DNA of 64,000 nt, from the IMG/VR virus record IMGVR_UViG_3300010396_000045, positions 29,590 to 93,589 of that record. One strand, given 5' to 3'. Shown here piece by piece: positions 3,939 to 30,098 of the stretch. The notes beneath the pieces were generated by a model that saw only the letters and a program-made list of their open reading frames with translations, did not search any database and was not told the origin of the DNA. This DNA comes from a virus. Position 1 is the first letter of the stretch, and every line of letters begins with the position of its first letter. A program made the translations under genes and the position numbers.

Positions 3939-4062
3939 TGCGCCGCCGCATGCACTATCCACTTCGCGTCATGCTGATGATGCGAACAGTCTTCCGCCAG
4001 AGACTAAGACTACTACCGTTGCGTCTTGTTCTATTGACGAGATTGGATGAGAGAAAGCGCAA

Positions 4063-4272
4063 GTGACGGGAGCCGAGCTAGTAGCCGCCCTAGACACGAT
4101 AGGGTGGTCTAACCGTAAGCTGGCAAAGCGTCTGAGATGCGACGAAATCCGCATTCGTAGATGGATACAGGACGTATCACAGGTCCCTCCGAGCGTCGCT
4201 AAGTGGCTCTCTACGCTAGCCGCATTCCACGAACGCCACCCGGCTCCTACAGATTGGAGAGTGAGGAAATGA
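4063..4272 (+). CDS. Small HTH (XRE-like) DNA-binding protein
   Basis: ELVAALDTIGWSNRKLAKRLRCDEIRIRRW pattern. Confidence 0.7.
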   Translation: MTGAELVAALDTIGWSNRKLAKRLRCDEIRIRRWIQDVSQVPPSVAKWLSTLAAFHERHPAPTDWRVRK

Positions 4273-4481
4273 CGATACACACAGATGCGTTGATGCCGTA
4301 TCTGCATGGAACAGTGGTTTTCCTTCTTGTTCTGCTGTTCAGCGGGATTTGTGCCCCACCGATCCTCGATGCATTCACGAGAGGAAGGCTGGTCACCGGA
4401 GGTGTCTTTAGCCTGATTTACGGCGGGGGCGTCTTCCTCATCGCCGGCGTTTCGACCGGCTACGTGCAGTTCGCGCACTGA
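4269..4481 (+). CDS. Small two-TM membrane protein
   Basis: ATGA overlap with previous stop, GAGG RBS, hydrophobic segments. Confidence 0.6.
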   Translation: MTIHTDALMPYLHGTVVFLLVLLFSGICAPPILDAFTRGRLVTGGVFSLIYGGGVFLIAGVSTGYVQFAH

Positions 4482-4498
4482 GGAGTGAGGAAAATAGG

Positions 4499-4699
4499 AT
4501 GCTCAGTAACAAAGACGATATGACGCTGATCCAGGAACTTATCGAGGCCGATCTCCGGACGCGGTTTGCCATGCGGATACGATGCCGCGCGCAGGGACAC
4601 GACTATGAAAAACATGGCAGCATGTCCGCAGAGGGGACGCTTACTCGCGTCGATCTGGTCTGCAAGTGGTGCGGCGAAAATAAACTAAACGCGGAGTGA
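4499..4699 (+). CDS. Hypothetical protein (DUF1660-like C..GH..CxxC)
   Basis: CRAQGHDY..CKWCG. Confidence 0.55.
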   Translation: MLSNKDDMTLIQELIEADLRTRFAMRIRCRAQGHDYEKHGSMSAEGTLTRVDLVCKWCGENKLNAE

Positions 4700-4703
4700 G
4701 GAA

Positions 4704-4988
4704 ATGAAACGCACCCTGCTAGCCTCATGCGTCCTGCTAAGCGGATGCTACGTCGATCCCAACACCGGACTCGTCTACTCAACGCCGCAGTACCAATACC
4801 AGTCGGTCGCCGTCTATCACTACCAAGTCCCGCCACCCAATCCATACTACCAGGCGCGGCAGGACCAGCCCTACTATCAGGAATGGCGACAGTCCGCCGA
4901 GGAGCAATACAACCAGTGCGTCGCTAGGGACCAGGAGCGCCGAATGTATCAGCAACCGCTAGAGGACTGCGGAGGGTATTTCCGATGA
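4704..4988 (+). CDS. Putative lipoprotein
   Basis: MKR + hydrophobic stretch + lipobox LSGC. Confidence 0.7.
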   Translation: MKRTLLASCVLLSGCYVDPNTGLVYSTPQYQYQSVAVYHYQVPPPNPYYQARQDQPYYQEWRQSAEEQYNQCVARDQERRMYQQPLEDCGGYFR

Positions 4989-5239
4989 CGGACAGTAATG
5001 ACCAGTCCAAACATCGCTGGTGGGATAGTGAAAGGCAAGAGTGGGCATATCCGGAAGACGACAAAGCCCGCCTGGACCTCTACTTCTGGCAACGAACGAG
5101 TGACCTGGAGCGCGAGAAGTCGCACCTGCTAGAAGTGATCGCCTCGGCCCACGAAGTAATACGCCATGACAATGACCTCGCCAGCGCAGAGACAATGCTG
5201 CGAGAATGCCTTGAGAAATTCGGCATTACTCCACGCTAG
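4985..5239 (+). CDS. Hypothetical protein
   Basis: ATGA-coupled ORF with GGAGG RBS. Confidence 0.55.
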   Translation: MTDSNDQSKHRWWDSERQEWAYPEDDKARLDLYFWQRTSDLEREKSHLLEVIASAHEVIRHDNDLASAETMLRECLEKFGITPR

Positions 5240-5256
5240 GTTTGCATCTCGCATAG
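5240..5256. promoter_or_regulatory. 17-bp operator copy GTTTGCA-TCT-CGCATAG
   Basis: Degenerate consensus match, intergenic. Confidence 0.5.
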
Positions 5257-5289
5257 CCATGAGGTATCCATCCCGCGCGGAGGAAACCC

Positions 5290-5526
5290 ATGGCAAAGCT
5301 GCTGGAGGAGACGAAAGTCGTCCTCATCGTAGGCGCTCCGGCGCTGCTCGCATCGCTCGGCGTAATTCTGCTCCTGAAGGCCACATGCGGGTTACTGTGG
5401 AACTCTAGCTGCCAAGTCCGAATGGTAGGCGTCCATCACCTCGACGAGCCTATCCAGATAGCCCGGACGCATGTGCCACCAGAGCTTATCACGCCGGTAG
5501 TGCTCGGGACGTACAGAGGACCCTAG
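5290..5526 (+). CDS. Small membrane protein
   Basis: GGAGG RBS, N-terminal TM segment. Confidence 0.5.
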   Translation: MAKLLEETKVVLIVGAPALLASLGVILLLKATCGLLWNSSCQVRMVGVHHLDEPIQIARTHVPPELITPVVLGTYRGP

Positions 5527-5744
5527 GCGAACAGCCTATCCCATTTCTCCCTGTCCCGCTTCCACGTCGCGCGTAGGTTCGCGATCTCGGCCTCATTCGT
5601 ATGCCCCGAGCACGAGAGCCCAGTGTTCCCGGTCTCTAGCTTCATGTCCGGATGGCCGTAGGCGACCAGCTCTACGCGAGCGCGACCGCACTTTACGCAA
5701 AAGCCGTTCTCGAACTCGTGGTCCATTATTGTTTCGCGCGGCAT
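5523..5744 (-). CDS. Hypothetical protein
   Basis: ORF track; CxxC motif. Confidence 0.45.
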   Translation of the reverse strand: MPRETIMDHEFENGFCVKCGRARVELVAYGHPDMKLETGNTGLSCSGHTNEAEIANLRATWKRDREKWDRLFA

Positions 5745-5749
5745 TGTCG

Positions 5750-5780
5750 CTTTGCAATTTGCATAGAGGGAGGGTATAAA
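5750..5780 (+). promoter_or_regulatory. Operator CTTTGCA-ATT-TGCATAG (5750-5766) overlapping promoter TTGCAA-N17-TATAAA
   Basis: Direct sequence; upstream of HNH gene. Confidence 0.65.
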
Positions 5781-5848
5781 ACGGGAACAGCGCGTCGGAT
5801 CAGGACACGCTGCCCCTGACCATTACGACTAGAAAGGACAAGAGCCGA

Positions 5849-6619
5849 ATGGCTGAGAAGACTATAGCACGCCCAATGCGTGGAGATAGATGCGCCCGCA
5901 ATCCGCTGCGGGACCTTTATCCGGTAGAATACCAAGCCTGGGTGCAGCTTAGACAGAGATGCTACAATCCAGATAACGAAAGCTACTCGAATTATGGCGC
6001 AAGAGGCATCCGCGTCGAGGCTATATGGGATACCTTCGAGGGCTTTATGGCCACCATGGGGCCTAAGCCATCCCCAGACCTTAGCGTCGAGCGGCCAGAC
6101 AATGATGGGAATTACGGCGCTCAATGCTACTGGGGAACCCCAGATGAGCAGAACAACAACAATCGGCACAATCACCCGATAACCTATGACGGACGAACAC
6201 AGAACCTAGAGCAATGGTCTCAGGAAATCGGGCTTGACCATACGGCGCTTCTGAAGCGGCTTAGACTGAAGTGGACTATAGGTCAGGCGCTAGGGTTCGA
6301 GCCTCCTCCATTCAATCCCAAGGCCCACAATGGGACTACCGTGTCCGAAAAGTTGGCTTGTGGCGTCAACCGGACGACTTACCAAATGCGAATCGCTTCG
6401 GGATGGACCGACGAAGCCGCGAGGCAGAATGTCGATGGGCGCAAGCACAAGCAGAACAAGCATCCGAAGTATATCTACGTCAGCCATCCGGCTCTTGGCG
6501 AAGGAGAGTTCACCATTCAGCAGGCCGCTTTGATCGTAGGAAAGAAACCCAACACGGTGACTGTAGCAATAACCCGCAGAGGGAAGACGCCTCTGCAAGC
6601 TCTTGGACTGGAGAAGTAG
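5849..6619 (+). CDS. Free-standing HNH-type homing endonuclease with C-terminal DNA-binding modules
   Basis: RQRCYNP..YGARGIRV..SVERPDNDGNY..CYWGTPDEQNNN motif typical of phage HNH HEGs. Confidence 0.8.
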   Translation: MAEKTIARPMRGDRCARNPLRDLYPVEYQAWVQLRQRCYNPDNESYSNYGARGIRVEAIWDTFEGFMATMGPKPSPDLSVERPDNDGNYGAQCYWGTPDEQNNNNRHNHPITYDGRTQNLEQWSQEIGLDHTALLKRLRLKWTIGQALGFEPPPFNPKAHNGTTVSEKLACGVNRTTYQMRIASGWTDEAARQNVDGRKHKQNKHPKYIYVSHPALGEGEFTIQQAALIVGKKPNTVTVAITRRGKTPLQALGLEK

Positions 6620-6646
6620 GGGGCTCCGCTCCCCCCAAACTCATTA

Positions 6647-20553: not shown

Positions 20554-21363
20554 CTAAGTCCCTGGAGTTGGTGGGACTGTCTGGGCGGCAGCCGGAACAC
20601 CAGCTACGCCGTGCCTGTGAGTAGACAGCCCCACCTGGTCTGCCGTCCCAAAGCCGCCCGTTACCGTCCCGGTGATCTGCAAGTTGCCGTTGATCTTCAC
20701 CAGAGGACAGTTAATCGTCATCAGGCTCGCGCTGTTGACAGTCACGGTAGGCGCAGTGACCGTAGCCGAATTGTTGGCCGTCACGGTCACGCTAGAAGCG
20801 CCGGTAATGTTGACGACGTTGTTCTGCGCGTCCGCCTCTATCGTTATCCCCTTGACGACCAGCCTGACCTTCTCGTTGTCGTTATCGACCTCGGCATAGA
20901 TCGACCCGTCGCTCGTCCGGAGCTGCGCCGTCGTCGTCGAGAGGTTGCTGATCTTTGTGGCTTGAGACCAAGGCCCAGGTATCGCGAAGCCGTCCGACAA
21001 ATCGTGCATTCGCAATTCTCGCTGCGTTTGCACTCCGCCTTGCTGCCACCAGTTGTCGATGCACCGGGAGCTGAAAACGATCAGGCATTCGTCCCCCTGC
21101 TGCACCGGAAACGTCAGCGCATATTGCCCGCCCCGAGGAAAGATAACCGGGACGTCGGGAATGACAGGCATGACCTTCCATTCCTTCGTCTGGTCTGGCC
21201 CCGTATAGAGCGCGTGTAGCGCAGGCTGGACCTGTGCCGTTATCGTATCCGCATCGTAGCTGGTGATGATGCCGGGTAACGCGGTCCAAATGCCGGATTG
21301 TCTGCTCTGAATAGCACTTTTAACCGCGCTCTGGGGGTTTTCGTAGCGTTCTCGGTCTTGCAT
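20554..21363 (-). CDS. Baseplate central spike (Gp138/gp45-like)
   Basis: DVPVIFPRGG, GDECLIVFSSRCIDNWW, RMHDLSDGF; C-terminal HRH metal-binding apex. Confidence 0.9.
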   Translation of the reverse strand: MQDRERYENPQSAVKSAIQSRQSGIWTALPGIITSYDADTITAQVQPALHALYTGPDQTKEWKVMPVIPDVPVIFPRGGQYALTFPVQQGDECLIVFSSRCIDNWWQQGGVQTQRELRMHDLSDGFAIPGPWSQATKISNLSTTTAQLRTSDGSIYAEVDNDNEKVRLVVKGITIEADAQNNVVNITGASSVTVTANNSATVTAPTVTVNSASLMTINCPLVKINGNLQITGTVTGGFGTADQVGLSTHRHGVAGVPAAAQTVPPTPGT

Positions 21364-22466
21364 TATAGAGGTGTCGTCCCCGGCGAAGGTCCTAACACAG
21401 CCGATGCAGATAGAGGCGGAGGGGGAGGAACGTTGAGGTTAGCTTGCGGCGTGTTAGCCGTGGGATCTACCGATAACGCCGTAAGCCTAGTGTACCACTC
21501 GCCGCCTCGCGTATCACCGACGTGGCTCGCGTAGATCACGACATAGTCTCCGTCGCTATTCAGCGGAGGAACCCATGCTCCCTGGTTCCCAAAGGCAGCA
21601 TTAGGAGAAGCCGCCCGTTGGTTTATCGTCGCATTAGCTGCCGCAAGGCGTAGCTGCGCAATCTCACTATTATTGAAGCGAACCCGCGCTCCCCAAACGA
21701 CACTTGGGTTCAACAAGCACATCGCCTGTATTCCCGTTTCAGTCTGTTCCGGAGTTCCTATCTGGCCTGTGGCCGAATTTATGATTACTGCCTCTCCAGG
21801 ACGGACAGAAAACTTTGGGAGAACCTGGAGCTGGTTTTGATAAATGTTCCAAGTGCACGAATAGGAGTCAGCAAAATCGTCAAGATAATCGCGTGTTAGC
21901 CCATGCATTACCTTACCACGAGGAGCCGGCTGGGCCTGCAAGCCATCGGGAGGGCCGCCATATGTTGCCTGCCACGGAGAAAGTGAATCGGCACAGTGTT
22001 GAAGAACATCCTCGCTCGTATAGCCTTTTGCTAGGCTCTTGGAGAGGAATCCGAAATTATGGGCCATATCTCCGTCAGCCGCAAAGATGTCGATGTATGT
22101 ATCTACATTGGACTCTTTGCCGGTACGGAGTTGATAGATGTAGCCCTGGAATAGTTGACCAAAGTTCTGCTGGTAGCCGGCCTTCAACACGACCTGCGCC
22201 GAAGTCTTCCTAGGAACTCCGACTATCGTCGCACCGTTCTGGCTTGCTAGACCTACAATCCTTTCCGTAGTGTTGGAACTCAGGTTATAAACTCTTGCAT
22301 GTAGAGACGCGGGGGTATCTCTCGTCCAATAGTTGACAGTGAAACGAATCCTCAAGACATTCGGCTGGTCAGGACCCGCTAGCTCGATACCATTACCTTG
22401 CATGTCAGCAACGACGAGGGAGCATGCTCGCAGCCACTGAGCAGCGCTACTTACTGTCTGGCTCAC
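21363..22466 (-). CDS. Baseplate hub protein
   Basis: RVYNLS, LKAGY..LFQG, CLLNP, GDTRGGEWY; synteny. Confidence 0.85.
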   Translation of the reverse strand: MSQTVSSAAQWLRACSLVVADMQGNGIELAGPDQPNVLRIRFTVNYWTRDTPASLHARVYNLSSNTTERIVGLASQNGATIVGVPRKTSAQVVLKAGYQQNFGQLFQGYIYQLRTGKESNVDTYIDIFAADGDMAHNFGFLSKSLAKGYTSEDVLQHCADSLSPWQATYGGPPDGLQAQPAPRGKVMHGLTRDYLDDFADSYSCTWNIYQNQLQVLPKFSVRPGEAVIINSATGQIGTPEQTETGIQAMCLLNPSVVWGARVRFNNSEIAQLRLAAANATINQRAASPNAAFGNQGAWVPPLNSDGDYVVIYASHVGDTRGGEWYTRLTALSVDPTANTPQANLNVPPPPPLSASAVLGPSPGTTPL

Positions 22467-22496
22467 TTGCTTCTTGCCGCCGTAAAGCTATATAAT
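22467..22496 (+). promoter_or_regulatory. Promoter for pentamer-repeat RNA A
   Basis: TTGCTT-N18-TATAAT just upstream of the array. Confidence 0.6.
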
Positions 22497-22514
22497 GAGG
22501 CACGCTCCCCAGAG

Positions 22515-22607
22515 CGCATGGCTTGGTGTAGTCCGGTCAGGCGATGTATGGCGCGGTGGGGCTTGGAAGGGCAGTGTCAGGTATGGCACGGCTGGGTAAG
22601 GCAAGGA
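22515..22607 (+). ncRNA. (GGY-NN) pentamer array A, putative guide RNA (18 variable dinucleotides)
   Basis: cgcAT ggcTT ggtGT agtCC ggtCA ggcGA tgtAT ggcGC ggtGG ggcTT ggaAG ggcAG tgtCA ggtAT ggcAC ggcTG ggtAA ggcAA gga; own promoter and terminator. Confidence 0.85.
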
Positions 22608-22640
22608 GAGCGGGGCTTAGGCTCCGCTCTATTTCTTTCT
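22607..22640 (+). terminator. Intrinsic terminator after array A
   Basis: AGAGCGGGG-cttagg-CTCCGCTCT stem then ATTTCTTTCT. Confidence 0.7.
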
Positions 22641-22829
22641 GTCCAGCCCGATCATCATGAGCCGACGAACTGCTTCTGGCCGGGTCGGCAAATCATCCTG
22701 AACTCGCCGCCAGTCATCCAACCGTACTAGCTGCGACCGCTCTAGCCGTACGTTGACCGCCTCGCTATCTACGCTTGGCCTGCCAATTTTCTTTGCCGAT
22801 TTCTTAGCGCCGGATATTGACATGCCCAA
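22629..22829 (-). CDS. Ribbon-helix-helix DNA-binding protein
   Basis: GRPSVDSEAVNVRL..LDDWRR..PTRPEAVRRL; divergent from HNH/RAMP genes. Confidence 0.75.
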   Translation of the reverse strand: MGMSISGAKKSAKKIGRPSVDSEAVNVRLERSQLVRLDDWRRVQDDLPTRPEAVRRLMMIGLDRKK

Positions 22830-22855
22830 TACATAGCGCTATGCAATCTGCATAG
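22817..22855 (+). promoter_or_regulatory. Promoter TTGACA-N17-TATGCA overlapped by perfect operator CTATGCA-ATC-TGCATAG (22839-22855)
   Basis: Direct sequence; upstream of the HNH-RAMP-array operon. Confidence 0.7.
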
Positions 22856-22872
22856 CAACACGGAATACATGA

Positions 22873-23298
22873 ATGCCGTGCCAGGGTCTAATCGGCGACT
22901 ACTCATGCTCTGGCTGGCGCTCACTTGCTCAGCATATCCGAGAGCGCGACGGCAACCGATGCCGGGGCTGTAACCGGGGGCAGGAGACCATCGCGCTTGA
23001 GGTTCACCATCGGACCTACGGGACTCCGGGCCGCCCATGCGGAGCGTGTTATCTGACTGCCGTAGAAGACGACGACCTAGTTACCCTCTGCATTGAGTGC
23101 CACGAAGCGGTGACGAACGTGCGCCGGAAAGTGCGCTACGCCACCAGAAGCATAGAGATCGATACGATTGACCCTCCTGTGGCCGTAGTAGAGCCAGTCA
23201 GGAGGGTTCTGATCGTTCCCGTCGAACTGGTTCCTCCTCCGGTAGCCGCCGGAGTCGTAGTCAGGCCTAAGAAGTTCAATCCATTCAGCGAAGGTTAA
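22873..23298 (+). CDS. HNH endonuclease (McrA-like core) with C-terminal tail
   Basis: RERDGNRCRGC..LEVHHRTY..LVTLCIECHEAV. Confidence 0.85.
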   Translation: MPCQGLIGDYSCSGWRSLAQHIRERDGNRCRGCNRGQETIALEVHHRTYGTPGRPCGACYLTAVEDDDLVTLCIECHEAVTNVRRKVRYATRSIEIDTIDPPVAVVEPVRRVLIVPVELVPPPVAAGVVVRPKKFNPFSEG

Positions 23299-23300
23299 GT

Positions 23301-23891
23301 ATGCACAAAATACTCAAGACACGTCTAATCTCTGTTGCGCCATTTATCATGCACAACGGTCAGACTGCCGATCCCCTAAACAAGTTCGCCAAGGCGATGA
23401 AGGAAATCAGCGGCAAGCGGAAGAAGACCGAGGCGGACTTCATTGAACTGGCCCGCATCGAGTACTTCGCCGGCCTTTACATCGATAAGGATGGCCCAAT
23501 CATCCCATCCGTAATGCTAGAAGCTATGATTACGAAAGGCGCGGCAAAGGCCAAGAACAGTAAGCTAGCCGAGGCCGGAGTTATCGTCGACCAGCACGGT
23601 TACCTAGAATACGACGGTCCTCGGACCCCGGAGGAACTTGTCGCTGACGATCGGTTCCGGCTGACAGTTCCTGTCCGCATCGGCCAACAGAAGGTCATCA
23701 GGACGCGCCCAATCTTCCGGCAATGGGCGGCTGACATCGAGATCAAATACCTGGATGATATCATTAACGAACGCGACCTGCTTACCGCACTGCGGGCAGC
23801 GGGCACGTATGTCGGCATCGGTGACTGGCGCCCGCGCAACGGACGCTTCGCTCTCGCTGCCGATATGGCAGCCTTGAAAGAGGCGGCCTAG
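23301..23891 (+). CDS. RAMP/Cas7-like RNA-binding protein associated with pentamer arrays
   Basis: N-terminal strand + PFIMHN, IIPSVMLEAMI helix, RTRPIF..W thumb, C-terminal Gly-rich loop AGTYVGIGDWRPRNGRF. Confidence 0.7.
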   Translation: MHKILKTRLISVAPFIMHNGQTADPLNKFAKAMKEISGKRKKTEADFIELARIEYFAGLYIDKDGPIIPSVMLEAMITKGAAKAKNSKLAEAGVIVDQHGYLEYDGPRTPEELVADDRFRLTVPVRIGQQKVIRTRPIFRQWAADIEIKYLDDIINERDLLTALRAAGTYVGIGDWRPRNGRFALAADMAALKEAA

Positions 23892-23979
23892 GGCTTGGTC
23901 AGGTCAGGCTCGGTATGGCTCGGCAGGGCAAGGCATAGTTGGGCAGTGTCCGGTCAGGCTTGGTATGGCTTGGTGAGGG
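23892..23979 (+). ncRNA. (GGY-NN) pentamer array B (17 units)
   Basis: Starts right after the RAMP stop; NN = TT CA CA TC AT TC AG AA AT TG AG CC CA TT AT TT GA. Confidence 0.85.
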
Positions 23980-23988
23980 CTTTCATAG

Positions 23989-24033
23989 CGGGGAGGAGGC
24001 GATACGTCGCCTTCTCTTCGGTGCGAAAGTACC
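23989..24033 (+). other. Two hairpins separating arrays B and C
   Basis: CGGGGAGGAGGCGA-tacg-TCGCCTTCTCTTCG and GGTGC-gaaa-GTACC. Confidence 0.65.
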
Positions 24034-24115
24034 GCATGGTCGAGTACGGCCTGGTCAGGTGAGGCTGGCTATGGCGCGGTCTAGTCAGGTCCGGCGATGT
24101 TGGGTATGGCAGGGA
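24033..24115 (+). ncRNA. (GGY-NN) pentamer array C (16 units)
   Basis: Begins CGCATGG like array A; NN = AT CG AC CT CA GA TG AT GC CT CA CC GA TG AT AG. Confidence 0.8.
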
Positions 24116-24124
24116 AACTACTTT

Positions 24125-24511
24125 ATGATACGAGTACTGACCGTCACGGCAGCAATCCTATTAGCAGGATCTCTAGCTAATGCGGATGAGATCCGCTGGT
24201 TCGCGGGGCGCTATGTCAACGTTATGGATGGCTATGCCTATAGCGATCCCGACTCAATGATCGAGTGCTCTATAGATAGAGACTGGACAAAACCTCCGCT
24301 ACCCCAGTTCCGGCATAAGCCGGCCCATGGCTCTTGTCAGCATGTCCTTCGTTCCGCAGCCAATCCTGGCTTCGTCCCATTTAGGGACGGATGGTTTATC
24401 AATACCGAGCCACCATACGCAGGTATTATAGGTATGCAGTGCGGCGCGACTGTCGGCCAGAAGGATGGGGGATTCTGGTGTGACTGGCCCCCTTATGGAA
24501 CCACAAAATAA
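24125..24511 (+). CDS. Small exported protein
   Basis: Likely start MIRVLTVTAAILLAGSLANA (signal peptide); the track's N-terminal extension is a translation of the arrays. Confidence 0.6.
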   Translation: MIRVLTVTAAILLAGSLANADEIRWFAGRYVNVMDGYAYSDPDSMIECSIDRDWTKPPLPQFRHKPAHGSCQHVLRSAANPGFVPFRDGWFINTEPPYAGIIGMQCGATVGQKDGGFWCDWPPYGTTK

Positions 24512-29156: not shown

Positions 29157-30098
29157 ATGAGCACGCCCCGATTTAAGACTGATCCAGACAATCATCCTCG
29201 TCCGATGCCAGGAGCCTATCTGGTAAGGAACCTAATCAACGGAAAATGCTATGTCGGAATCAGTCAAAAGGTCAGTCGTCGGAGGGCAGAACACACCAGA
29301 GGCGACGGAACAGCGCCTCTCCTGACCAAAGCTATTCGCAAGTACGGCGTAGAGAACTTCGAGTTTGTCCCGCTATTCTACTCAATGACAGGAACTCTGT
29401 TTCTCCCAGAGCTGGAAGCAACTCTCATTGCTGCCTATGACGCTCTGGTGCCTAACGGATACAACGTTCAGGCGTCGTCTGGAGCAGTCGGTCCTTACGG
29501 CCCTGCGTTCGGCGAAATACTCCGCCTAGCCTTTGCAAAGCCAGAAACTAAGGCGCGCAAGAGTGCCGCCGCTAAGAGTCGAGATCCTATTCTAATGAAG
29601 AAGTTCTGGGAAGCCGCGCAGGCCCCAGAAGTCAAGGCCAGAGCCATCGCGACAATGACAGCCACCAGGAGGAGACCGGAAGTCCGTCTAGCTCAGTCTA
29701 TTCGGGTGAAAGCTATGAATGCTGACCCGGAGTTCGTCGCTAATCGAACGCAGAAGGCAGTTCTGACGAAGTCAGATCCCGCATGGAAAGCCAGGGTAGC
29801 CCCGAGCTATTCGGAGGCACAAAACCGTCCCGATGTGAAAGCTAAGAAGTCCGTAGCGATACAGGCTGCCTTAGCGACCCCGGAAGCTAAGGCCAACAGA
29901 TTAGGGAGATTCTGGATAACGGACGGAACGGTCGAGTTAAAGGTTGCTAAAGGCAGCACGATTCCCGATGGATGGACCCGTGGTCGGAATAGCAAGTTCA
30001 AGGAGGCTCATTCTCCCGATGCTATGGGGAAAATAGCAAGGAACCCCAGACCCCCTCGTCGCGGATATAAGTTACGCCGGATCAACGGTTCACATTGA
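29157..30098 (+). CDS. Free-standing GIY-YIG homing endonuclease with NUMOD3-like repeats
   Basis: GAYLVRNLINGKCYVGIS, AIRKYG..FEF, PNGYN; reads on + strand (ATGAGCACG at 29157) although the track labels it minus. Confidence 0.85.
   Translation: MSTPRFKTDPDNHPRPMPGAYLVRNLINGKCYVGISQKVSRRRAEHTRGDGTAPLLTKAIRKYGVENFEFVPLFYSMTGTLFLPELEATLIAAYDALVPNGYNVQASSGAVGPYGPAFGEILRLAFAKPETKARKSAAAKSRDPILMKKFWEAAQAPEVKARAIATMTATRRRPEVRLAQSIRVKAMNADPEFVANRTQKAVLTKSDPAWKARVAPSYSEAQNRPDVKAKKSVAIQAALATPEAKANRLGRFWITDGTVELKVAKGSTIPDGWTRGRNSKFKEAHSPDAMGKIARNPRPPRRGYKLRRINGSH

Follow-up and report, generated by a model that had tools for sequence, protein, structure and literature searches.

A phage VIPR cassette with an HNH partner and a probable guide against a rival allele of the adjacent gene: a possible RNA-guided element for homing or the exclusion of rivals

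Introduction

Free-standing homing endonucleases of the T-even phages, such as SegF, SegG, and MobE, are known for "intronless homing" and for marker exclusion. The specificity of these enzymes is set by a DNA-binding domain of their own. Free-standing homing endonuclease genes usually insert beside genes for the portal, large terminase, tape measure, and head-tail joining proteins and for helicases.

RNA-guided systems offer the nearest mechanistic analogues of the cassette described here, namely, HNH-Cascade and the TnpB and IscB nucleases. HNH-Cascade (types I-E and I-F; PDB 8yha, 8zp7, and 9siu) joins an RNA-guided complex with a RAMP backbone to an HNH nuclease and cuts the bound DNA without Cas3. 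These complexes serve host-encoded adaptive immunity; they carry HNH as a fusion to Cas8 or Cas5 and take a contiguous CRISPR spacer as their guide. In IS200/605 transposons, an RNA-guided cut by TnpB or IscB promotes the retention or spread of the element by homologous recombination (PMC10705468). These nucleases have an unrelated fold (RuvC) and use a contiguous guide, and their target is the empty donor site of the transposon.

The closest described systems are VIPRs, CRISPR-like RNA-guided DNA binders of phages that were reported in 2026 (10.64898/2026.04.26.720920, 10.64898/2026.04.26.720927, 10.64898/2026.10.15.759431; hereafter, the VIPR papers). Vipr is a minimal RAMP protein, and its RNA, the vrRNA, consists of 9 to 16 YNNGG repeats followed by a tail (VIPR papers, 10.64898/2026.04.26.720920). 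Vipr protomers coat the GGYNN repeats in such a way that each GGY is hidden and each NN is presented, and the resulting helical filament recognizes double-stranded DNA with the pattern NNxNNx, on which it makes a gapped R-loop triplex (VIPR papers). By this 1-nt-skip rule one base is skipped per NN pair, usually at the wobble position of a codon; no PAM is needed, and both strands can be targeted (VIPR papers). The studied systems are nuclease free and act by transcriptional silencing of competing phages or satellites (VIPR papers). No self-hits at 80% or above were reported (VIPR paper). Among the seven types, type II carries the DNA-binding accessory gene vap1, and types III to V carry predicted nucleases or helicases, including HNH (fig. 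S21 of that paper), mainly in host defense islands (10.64898/2026.04.26.720920). The VIPR papers make no mention of homing, of the targeting of flanking alleles, or of linkage (10.64898/2026.04.26.720920,.720927, 10.64898/2026.10.15.759431).

Here, we describe a locus that, together with about 140 relatives, represents an HNH-coupled VIPR within phage genomes whose guides are aimed at rival versions of cassette-adjacent genes. VIPRs and their HNH accessories are already published; what is new is the standing of HNH as a regular partner of Vipr, the rival hub target of one array, and the targeting of flanking genes across the clade.

Results and discussion

Organization of the cassette

The locus was analyzed within a 64-kb stretch (the window) of a 93.6-kb soil phage contig. 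Of the sequencing runs searched for this stretch, that of the source soil metagenome was the sole match, and no RNA run was among those listed. The cassette spans approximately positions 22467 to 24124, antisense between the genes for the baseplate plug and the baseplate hub, and it contains a ribbon-helix-helix (RHH) regulator, the HNH-vipr pair, and three vrRNA arrays (Table 1). Over nearly its full length (residues 3 to 185), the vipr product matched the structure annotated as "SUSP1 Vipr protein" (PDB 36pp_D, E = 8.5e-30). The locus thus combines a Vipr homolog with arrays on the same strand and, for array A, a 1-nt-skip target in which the skip falls on the wobble position. Judged from these features, the system at 22467-24124 is a VIPR, a kind of system already known as such. 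Pentamer arrays were also found beside homologs in Mycobacterium phage LittleE, Escherichia phage wV8, Pseudomonas phage Medea1, and Gordonia phage Trine.

With the studied VIPRs the locus shares a homologous Vipr, GGYNN arrays on the strand of the genes, the wobble skip, a phage-borne location, a competing phage as target, and an adjacent accessory gene. In the studied type II exemplars (SUSP1 and P. fulva), vap1 lies downstream, the outcome is silencing, and the guides are aimed at satellites or prophage regulators. In contrast, the present locus has no vap1, its HNH gene lies upstream, and its guides are aimed at rival alleles of genes flanking the cassette. The HNH partner falls in a category named by the first VIPR paper, which by its text would most likely be type III. 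However, the nuclease-type VIPRs of that paper are found mostly in host defense islands, whereas the HNH clade resides inside structural and replication modules of phages.

Arrays A, B, and C are the only period-5 GG arrays in the entire window, and all three lie on the plus strand. At 17 to 18 units, A and B exceed the published range of 9 to 16, and each of them may represent two RNAs. In the window, array A is followed by a hairpin with a T-run, array B by a long hairpin, and array C by nothing of the kind. An Rfam search over 22300-24300 returned no match. No CRISPR repeats were found in the window, and HNH is a separate gene that is not fused to Cas5 or Cas8.

Several elements of the cassette may bear on its expression. 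The RHH/Arc-like protein likely regulates the HNH-vipr operon, and the palindromes in the divergent promoter region are a candidate operator for it. The RHH gene is optional in the clade, with about 10 other loci carrying one. The hairpin and T-run behind array A may also terminate the RHH gene on the opposite strand. Within 22467-22519 there is a TATAAT box (22491-22496), some 24 nt ahead of the point where the units of array A begin. A consensus scan made no promoter call there, and the box may be the promoter of vrRNA A.

Two other genes of the window were recorded. Directly behind array C is an open reading frame (ORF) with a signal peptide, for which none of the retrieved loci held a homolog. 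Farther along, a GIY-YIG homing endonuclease gene stands free in the tail-gene region, antisense to its neighbors, which means that this phage also carries classical homing elements.

Table 1. Features of the HNH-vipr cassette and of selected sequences in the window.
Feature	Position	Strand	Description and support
Array A target allele, phage's own (spared)	21681..21737	-	In baseplate-hub gene 21363-22466
vrRNA array A	22520..~22609-22614	+	18 GGYNN units, core of ~14 units; period-5 GG scan
3' hairpin and T-run behind array A	22607..22640	+	Terminator-like vrRNA tail; sequence/folding
Ribbon-helix-helix/Arc-like repressor gene	22629..22829	-	66 aa, divergent; PHROG 4738, E = 1e-5
Divergent promoter region	22817..22858	.	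TTGACA and overlapping palindromes; read from sequence, function putative
HNH nuclease gene	22873..23298	+	Accessory (vap-type) gene of VIPR clade; 141 aa; TAA stop at 23296-23298
vipr gene	23301..23891	+	196-aa minimal RAMP protein; PHROG 4652, E = 3.5e-53
vrRNA array B	23892..~23976-23981	+	17 GGYNN units; period-5 GG scan
Hairpin behind array B	23975..24035	+	Long and stable (-37.3 kcal/mol, z = -4.6); vrRNA tail or processing element
vrRNA array C	24048..24117	+	14 units, shifted register, no hairpin tail; period-5 GG scan
ORF with signal peptide	24125..24511	+	128 aa
GIY-YIG homing endonuclease gene	29157..30098	+	313 aa; Pfam GIY-YIG, 1.7e-5; phrog_314, 3e-17

A minimal HNH nuclease is the regular partner of Vipr

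In the HNH protein, residues C30, C33, H45, H46, D68, C73, C76, and H77 make up a CxxC...HH...D...CxxCH motif. PHROG 119 was the best-matching family (E = 4.6e-12), and 13 more HNH PHROGs also matched. The Pfam HNH model (PF01844) scored 17.3 bits on the ORF, under its cutoff of 21.4 bits. A profile search of HNH against PDB sequences gave no match, and PADLOC returned only a weak match to ZorE for HNH (8e-4) and none for Vipr. We found 10 close homologs in a collection of 5.8 billion proteins; in their alignment, C30xxC33, H45-H46, C56xxC59, D66/D68, and C73xxC76-H77 were constant.

An AlphaFold2 model based on a 54-sequence alignment (pLDDT 83) showed a beta-beta-alpha-metal core at residues 13 to 90, built from a helix (13-25), two strands (42-46 and 69-73), and a second helix (74-90). 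The catalytic histidine, the metal-binding D/N and His, and the Cys4 zinc site that define this HNH fold are all present (H46, D68, H77, and C30/C33/C73/C76). Residues 91 to 141, a tail of 51 residues, were modeled as coil with a Val plus Pro content of 41%, versus 10% in the core. In Foldseek, the best match of the model was the HNH protein of phage GVE2 (5h0m, E = 3.5e-3), and further top matches were HNH domains within type I-E and Cas5-HNH Cascade complexes (8yha and 8zp7); probabilities were about 1, with weak E-values (3.5e-3 to 1e-2). No additional DNA-binding domain was detected by Pfam, by PHROG, or in the fold model, which consists only of the core and the coil tail. The nuclease therefore differs from homing endonucleases, which carry a DNA-recognition domain of their own. 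A sequence-only reading of the locus had described a minimal HNH with no recognition arm and with a Val/Pro-rich tail, placed 2 nt before a RAMP-like gene. The model bears out the first part of this description, the 2-nt gap between the HNH stop and the next ATG the second, and the RAMP-like neighbor proved to be Vipr. With such close spacing, the pair is probably translated jointly.

We asked how regular this pairing is among Vipr relatives (42 to 68% identity) taken from metagenomes and IMG/VR. The array survey comprised 146 nonredundant loci, including our own contig and the vap1-type phage loci L001 to L005, and the count of HNH co-occurrence comprised 141, of which the 119 with at least 400 nt upstream of vipr formed the denominator for an HNH-family HMM. 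Retrieval depended on alignment queries, as single-sequence searches (Vipr against genome contigs and HNH against viral contigs) gave no match. An HNH ORF was located directly upstream of vipr on the same strand at 114 of the 119 loci (96%). Residues H45, H46, C73, and H77 were invariant in all 114 of these ORFs, while C30, C33, and C76 were kept in 108 to 112 and a D or N at position 68 in 106. All three HNH relatives found in IMG/VR (L086 to L088) were directly upstream of vipr as well, on the same contigs as L107, L093, and L089. Meanwhile, vap1 (phrog_5926) was absent from the HNH clade and present in the type II-like loci L001 to L003 and L005. Together, the co-occurrence and the conserved residues indicate a dedicated accessory gene whose active site is under purifying selection. 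That HNH belongs with Vipr throughout this clade, and is no chance neighbor, we hold with high confidence.

A different origin of the gene was weighed against these counts. HNH could be an independent free-standing homing endonuclease with protein-encoded specificity that happened to land beside vipr; phages of this kind do carry such genes, and the GIY-YIG gene belongs to the same tail module. Yet the HNH protein is devoid of a DNA-recognition domain, its relatives in IMG/VR were found only beside vipr, and the pairing at 114 of 119 loci, usually with overlapping frames, holds across 42 to 68% Vipr identity. The co-occurrence largely refutes this reading, which we regard as highly improbable.

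The overlap of the two genes was itself a common feature. In 101 of 113 loci (L089, L090, and 99 others), the HNH frame extends past the vipr start, with a median overlap of 137 nt. In those loci, the HNH tail is overprinted on the N terminus of Vipr. A clean 2-nt gap with a separately encoded Val/Pro tail was seen in the window and in a few close relatives.

Array A matches the hub gene of a cassette-free relative

Because the guide covers codon positions 1 and 2, an array can be turned into a peptide, albeit a degenerate one. Decoded in antisense, array A aligned to the hub protein in the frame in which that gene is read, and the skipped base fell on the wobble position. This alignment had a BLOSUM score of 64, compared to a shuffled maximum of 38.5 ± 3.6 (z = 7.1), and none of 300 shuffles reached it. 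The mismatches were conservative exchanges (A/V, S/A, V/I, A/T, and R/K). The target lies 730 nt from the start of the hub gene, which is also the edge of the cassette (22466/22467).

The allele carried by the phage itself is a poor fit at the nucleotide level. It agreed with guide A at 22 of 38 read positions and differed at the other 16, which is at chance level given a shuffled maximum that averaged 22.1. When the three arrays were searched by the 1-nt-skip rule against their own 93.6-kb contig, no site scored above shuffles, the best for A being 23/38. This is in agreement with the reported lack of self-hits at or above 80% (VIPR paper).

A better match came from L218, an 8,173-nt stretch of IMG/VR contig 3300025915_000060 in which neither vipr nor an HNH gene was found. 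The two regions are syntenic on either side of the cassette: window positions 27000-24503 correspond to 1078-3632 of L218, and window positions 22477-19844 correspond to 3991-6625. Between the plug and hub genes, however, there are 359 bp with an unrelated small ORF in L218 versus 2026 bp in the window, such that the cassette is polymorphic for presence and absence at a fixed, conserved junction. With 77% amino acid identity and 70% nucleotide identity between the hub genes, L218 is no near-isogenic sibling. At the homologous site, L218 matched guide A at 29 of 38 positions overall and at 25 of 28 (89%) over the 14-unit core, and its peptide was identical to the array A decode at 14 of 16 residues. 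Thus, guide A spells the hub allele of a cassette-free relative, and the resident allele escapes by differences that change amino acids. There was no clear peak of divergence or recoding at the target when the hub genes of the window and L218 were compared; identity at codon positions 1 and 2 was 79% in the segment versus 83% overall.

Other searches for targets were negative. Scans of IMG/VR for the exact gapped pattern of each array core returned 0 matches for all three, so the exact target allele is not in IMG/VR. For arrays B and C, no amino acid-level match was found in their own contig or in L218 to L225, and no target was found for either. Of what the sequence-only reading had claimed about the arrays, the target of array A about 0.75 kb from the cassette edge and its match to a foreign allele of the neighboring hub gene were both recovered; a loose alignment of array B to the same hub segment was not, there being no match above shuffles in the contig.

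The slot between plug and hub also holds other cargo. In L218 it is occupied by a small ORF with a signal peptide (L218:3632-3952, minus strand) that differs from the signal-peptide ORF of the window. With different signal-peptide ORFs in the two phages, the junction looks like a moron slot.

Guides across the clade are preferentially aimed at flanking genes

Arrays in the nonredundant loci were nearly always on the strand of vipr (407 versus 3 on the other). Each array was decoded both ways round. Its score against the locus that carries it, translated in all six frames, was then compared to a null of 40 shuffles of the NN order. A z of at least 5 was reached in 42 of 814 tests, representing 38 arrays. 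When the same arrays were scored against a mismatched locus of similar length, only 2 of 808 tests reached this threshold. Nearly all of the own-locus matches fell in the ORF that abuts the cassette, 15 to 800 nt from its edge. For the 30 matches outside the cassette, the mean rank of the distance, taken relative to the flank available, was 0.20, compared to an expectation of 0.5 (Kolmogorov-Smirnov test, P = 1.3e-8). The preference for flanking genes at other loci that had been proposed as a check of the sequence-only reading is therefore present.

Since the loci extended only 5 kb each way, 15 whole viral contigs were added and rescanned genome-wide. This yielded 12 array-genome matches at z of at least 5, of which 8 were no more than 1.5 kb from the array; two of these 8 came from solo arrays far from any vipr gene. 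The remaining 4, one-third of the total, were 7 to 19 kb away and thus far from the cassette. In the subset of contigs picked by length alone, 5 of 6 matches were near, versus about 5% expected (3 kb of ~55 kb). None of the ten arrays in the vap1-type loci L001 to L005 matched, a sample too small for a comparison of types. We conclude that the linkage of guide to flank is a general property of the HNH-Vipr clade.

The pattern seen for array A, in which a rival allele fits the guide better than the resident one, recurred in at least six further loci. The guide of L134/L126 matched relatives L144 and L147 at 23 of 26 positions and its own allele at 18 to 19 of 26. Corresponding values were 22/24 in L083 versus 17/24 for the guide of L084, 24/32 in L140 versus 15/32 for that of L146, and 22/28 in L166 versus 16/28 for that of L160. 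The flanking genes that were targeted encode the portal, large terminase, tape measure, head-tail joining, and head morphogenesis proteins and a helicase, and in other phages the HNH-vipr cassette occupies different junctions. Targeting of rival alleles linked to the cassette is very probable in our judgment.

Some guides do fit genes of their own phage. Those of L144, L145, and L150 match their own flank at 86 to 94% over 9 to 11 units, and those of L057 and L102 match small ORFs in their own cassettes. Such cases would be expected if the flanking genes of the phage itself were the real targets, with weak filament binding to the resident late operon serving as insulation for the antisense cassette or as a timer of transcription. 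For array A, however, the own allele is at chance (22/38) and the allele of a relative is much better, several other guides also fit relatives above self, and the VIPR paper found no self-hits at or above 80%. We therefore consider self-regulation of this kind quite unlikely.

Guides of other descriptions were also encountered. In L057 (2641-2780 and 2811-3053), the decode of a 28-unit array matches a small ORF of its own cassette that is encoded on the opposite strand (z = 20; 40 of 54 NN positions); this guide could be directed at the element itself or at a regulator. Three guides are aimed at the C terminus of vipr itself. Guides directed at vipr have been reported for other clades (10.64898/2026.10.15.759431). 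Finally, in related viral contigs, solo pentamer arrays were found tens of kilobases from vipr (G001:37103-38098, G004:1147-1231, G009:74371-74455, and G009:87305-87364), and two of them, G004:1147-1231 and G009:87305-87364, decode to the directly neighboring gene.

Proposed mechanism: exclusion and spread

Taken together, these features give the cassette the look of an element that uses RNA guides to home or to exclude rivals, with cleavage, HNH-Vipr binding, and gene conversion as the inferred steps. We propose that in a coinfected or lysogenic cell, the Vipr-vrRNA filament would mark the hub gene of the rival. HNH, having no recognition domain of its own, would join the filament at its target, or be switched on by it there, and would cut the rival DNA. 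The rival allele would then be lost, resulting in marker exclusion. Recombinational repair from the resident genome could bring the immune hub allele into the rival and, by co-conversion, the cassette that is linked to it at a distance of 730 nt, amounting to homing-like spread. The chain as a whole, with its presumed cutting, HNH-Vipr binding, and gene conversion, is in our estimation slightly better than an even bet. True homing of the cassette is more tentative, being somewhat less likely than not. With perhaps a shade less assurance, we suggest that HNH-type VIPRs may be programmable RNA-guided homing elements, in which the filament replaces the recognition domain, the guide is tuned to rival flanking alleles, and the cut drives co-conversion.

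The studied VIPRs silence transcription, and exclusion without cutting is therefore a live alternative. The cassette would then be a poison-antidote unit that does not home: Vipr-vrRNA A would repress the rival hub gene in the manner of type II, and HNH would be auxiliary, for example, in degrading silenced DNA or in processing something else. The strict conservation of the HNH active site and the coupling of the gene to vipr in 96% of loci speak against an auxiliary role and argue for a catalytic one in the same pathway. Likewise, the occurrence of the cassette at many different junctions, along with a relative whose site is empty, suggests active mobility. Silencing by published VIPRs needs no nuclease, however, and the solo arrays at G004:1147-1231 and G009:87305-87364 match their neighbors while lying far from vipr and HNH, so proximity of guide and target needs no nuclease in cis. 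Close linkage between the guide and the immune allele would also be selected in the absence of cutting, because an unlinked pair would recombine into self-targeting, suicidal genomes. On balance, we consider silencing alone rather unlikely, but it is the strongest of the alternatives.

The cassette resembles the T-even elements SegF, SegG, and MobE in several respects. Here, too, a small nuclease gene sits between conserved essential genes and is polymorphic for presence and absence, and the target site is in a flanking gene a few hundred base pairs away where the resident allele is resistant. Unlike in those elements, a minimal nuclease would owe its specificity to a filament of RNA and protein that is separate from it, with cleavage and conversion as the presumed consequences. 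The likeness to HNH-Cascade is structural only, with weak Foldseek E-values; HNH is here a separate protein of 141 aa, and the vrRNA is a gapped guide.

The consequences of a cut at the filament would be considerable. The cassette would be an RNA-guided homing endonuclease that ties VIPR to the selfish spread of seg and mob genes and of TnpB, which would explain why such cassettes are found within essential gene modules. It would also constitute a very small programmable nuclease, made up of proteins of about 20 kDa and 16 kDa and an RNA of about 100 nt, with no PAM reported. The resulting gene-drive logic would go beyond what the VIPR papers describe (10.64898/2026.04.26.720920,.720927, 10.64898/2026.10.15.759431). 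Even if no cut is made, a weapon kept in tight linkage with its immune allele offers a rule of competition between phages that can be tested.

Variant tails and repeats in related phages

Two variations on the vrRNA were observed among the phage loci. In the actinophage VIPR loci of LittleE (L001:3631-3980 and 5132-5510) and Trine (L005:4568-4850), an element resembling the T-arm and acceptor of a tRNA (GGTTCGAnTCC...) stands behind each array, and ARAGORN reported one of them, at L005:4783-4851, as an odd tRNA. Pseudoknot tails and hammerhead spacers are named in the main text of the VIPR paper; tRNA-like tails are not. By their resemblance to tRNA, these tails may be a sign that RNase P or RNase Z takes part in processing. 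In Listonella phage phiHSIC (L004:4580-4930), the 5-nt period is kept and a fixed part of the GC type (NNNGC / GCANN) replaces GGY. These arrays may represent one of the alternative forms of the consensus that are mentioned in the VIPR paper.
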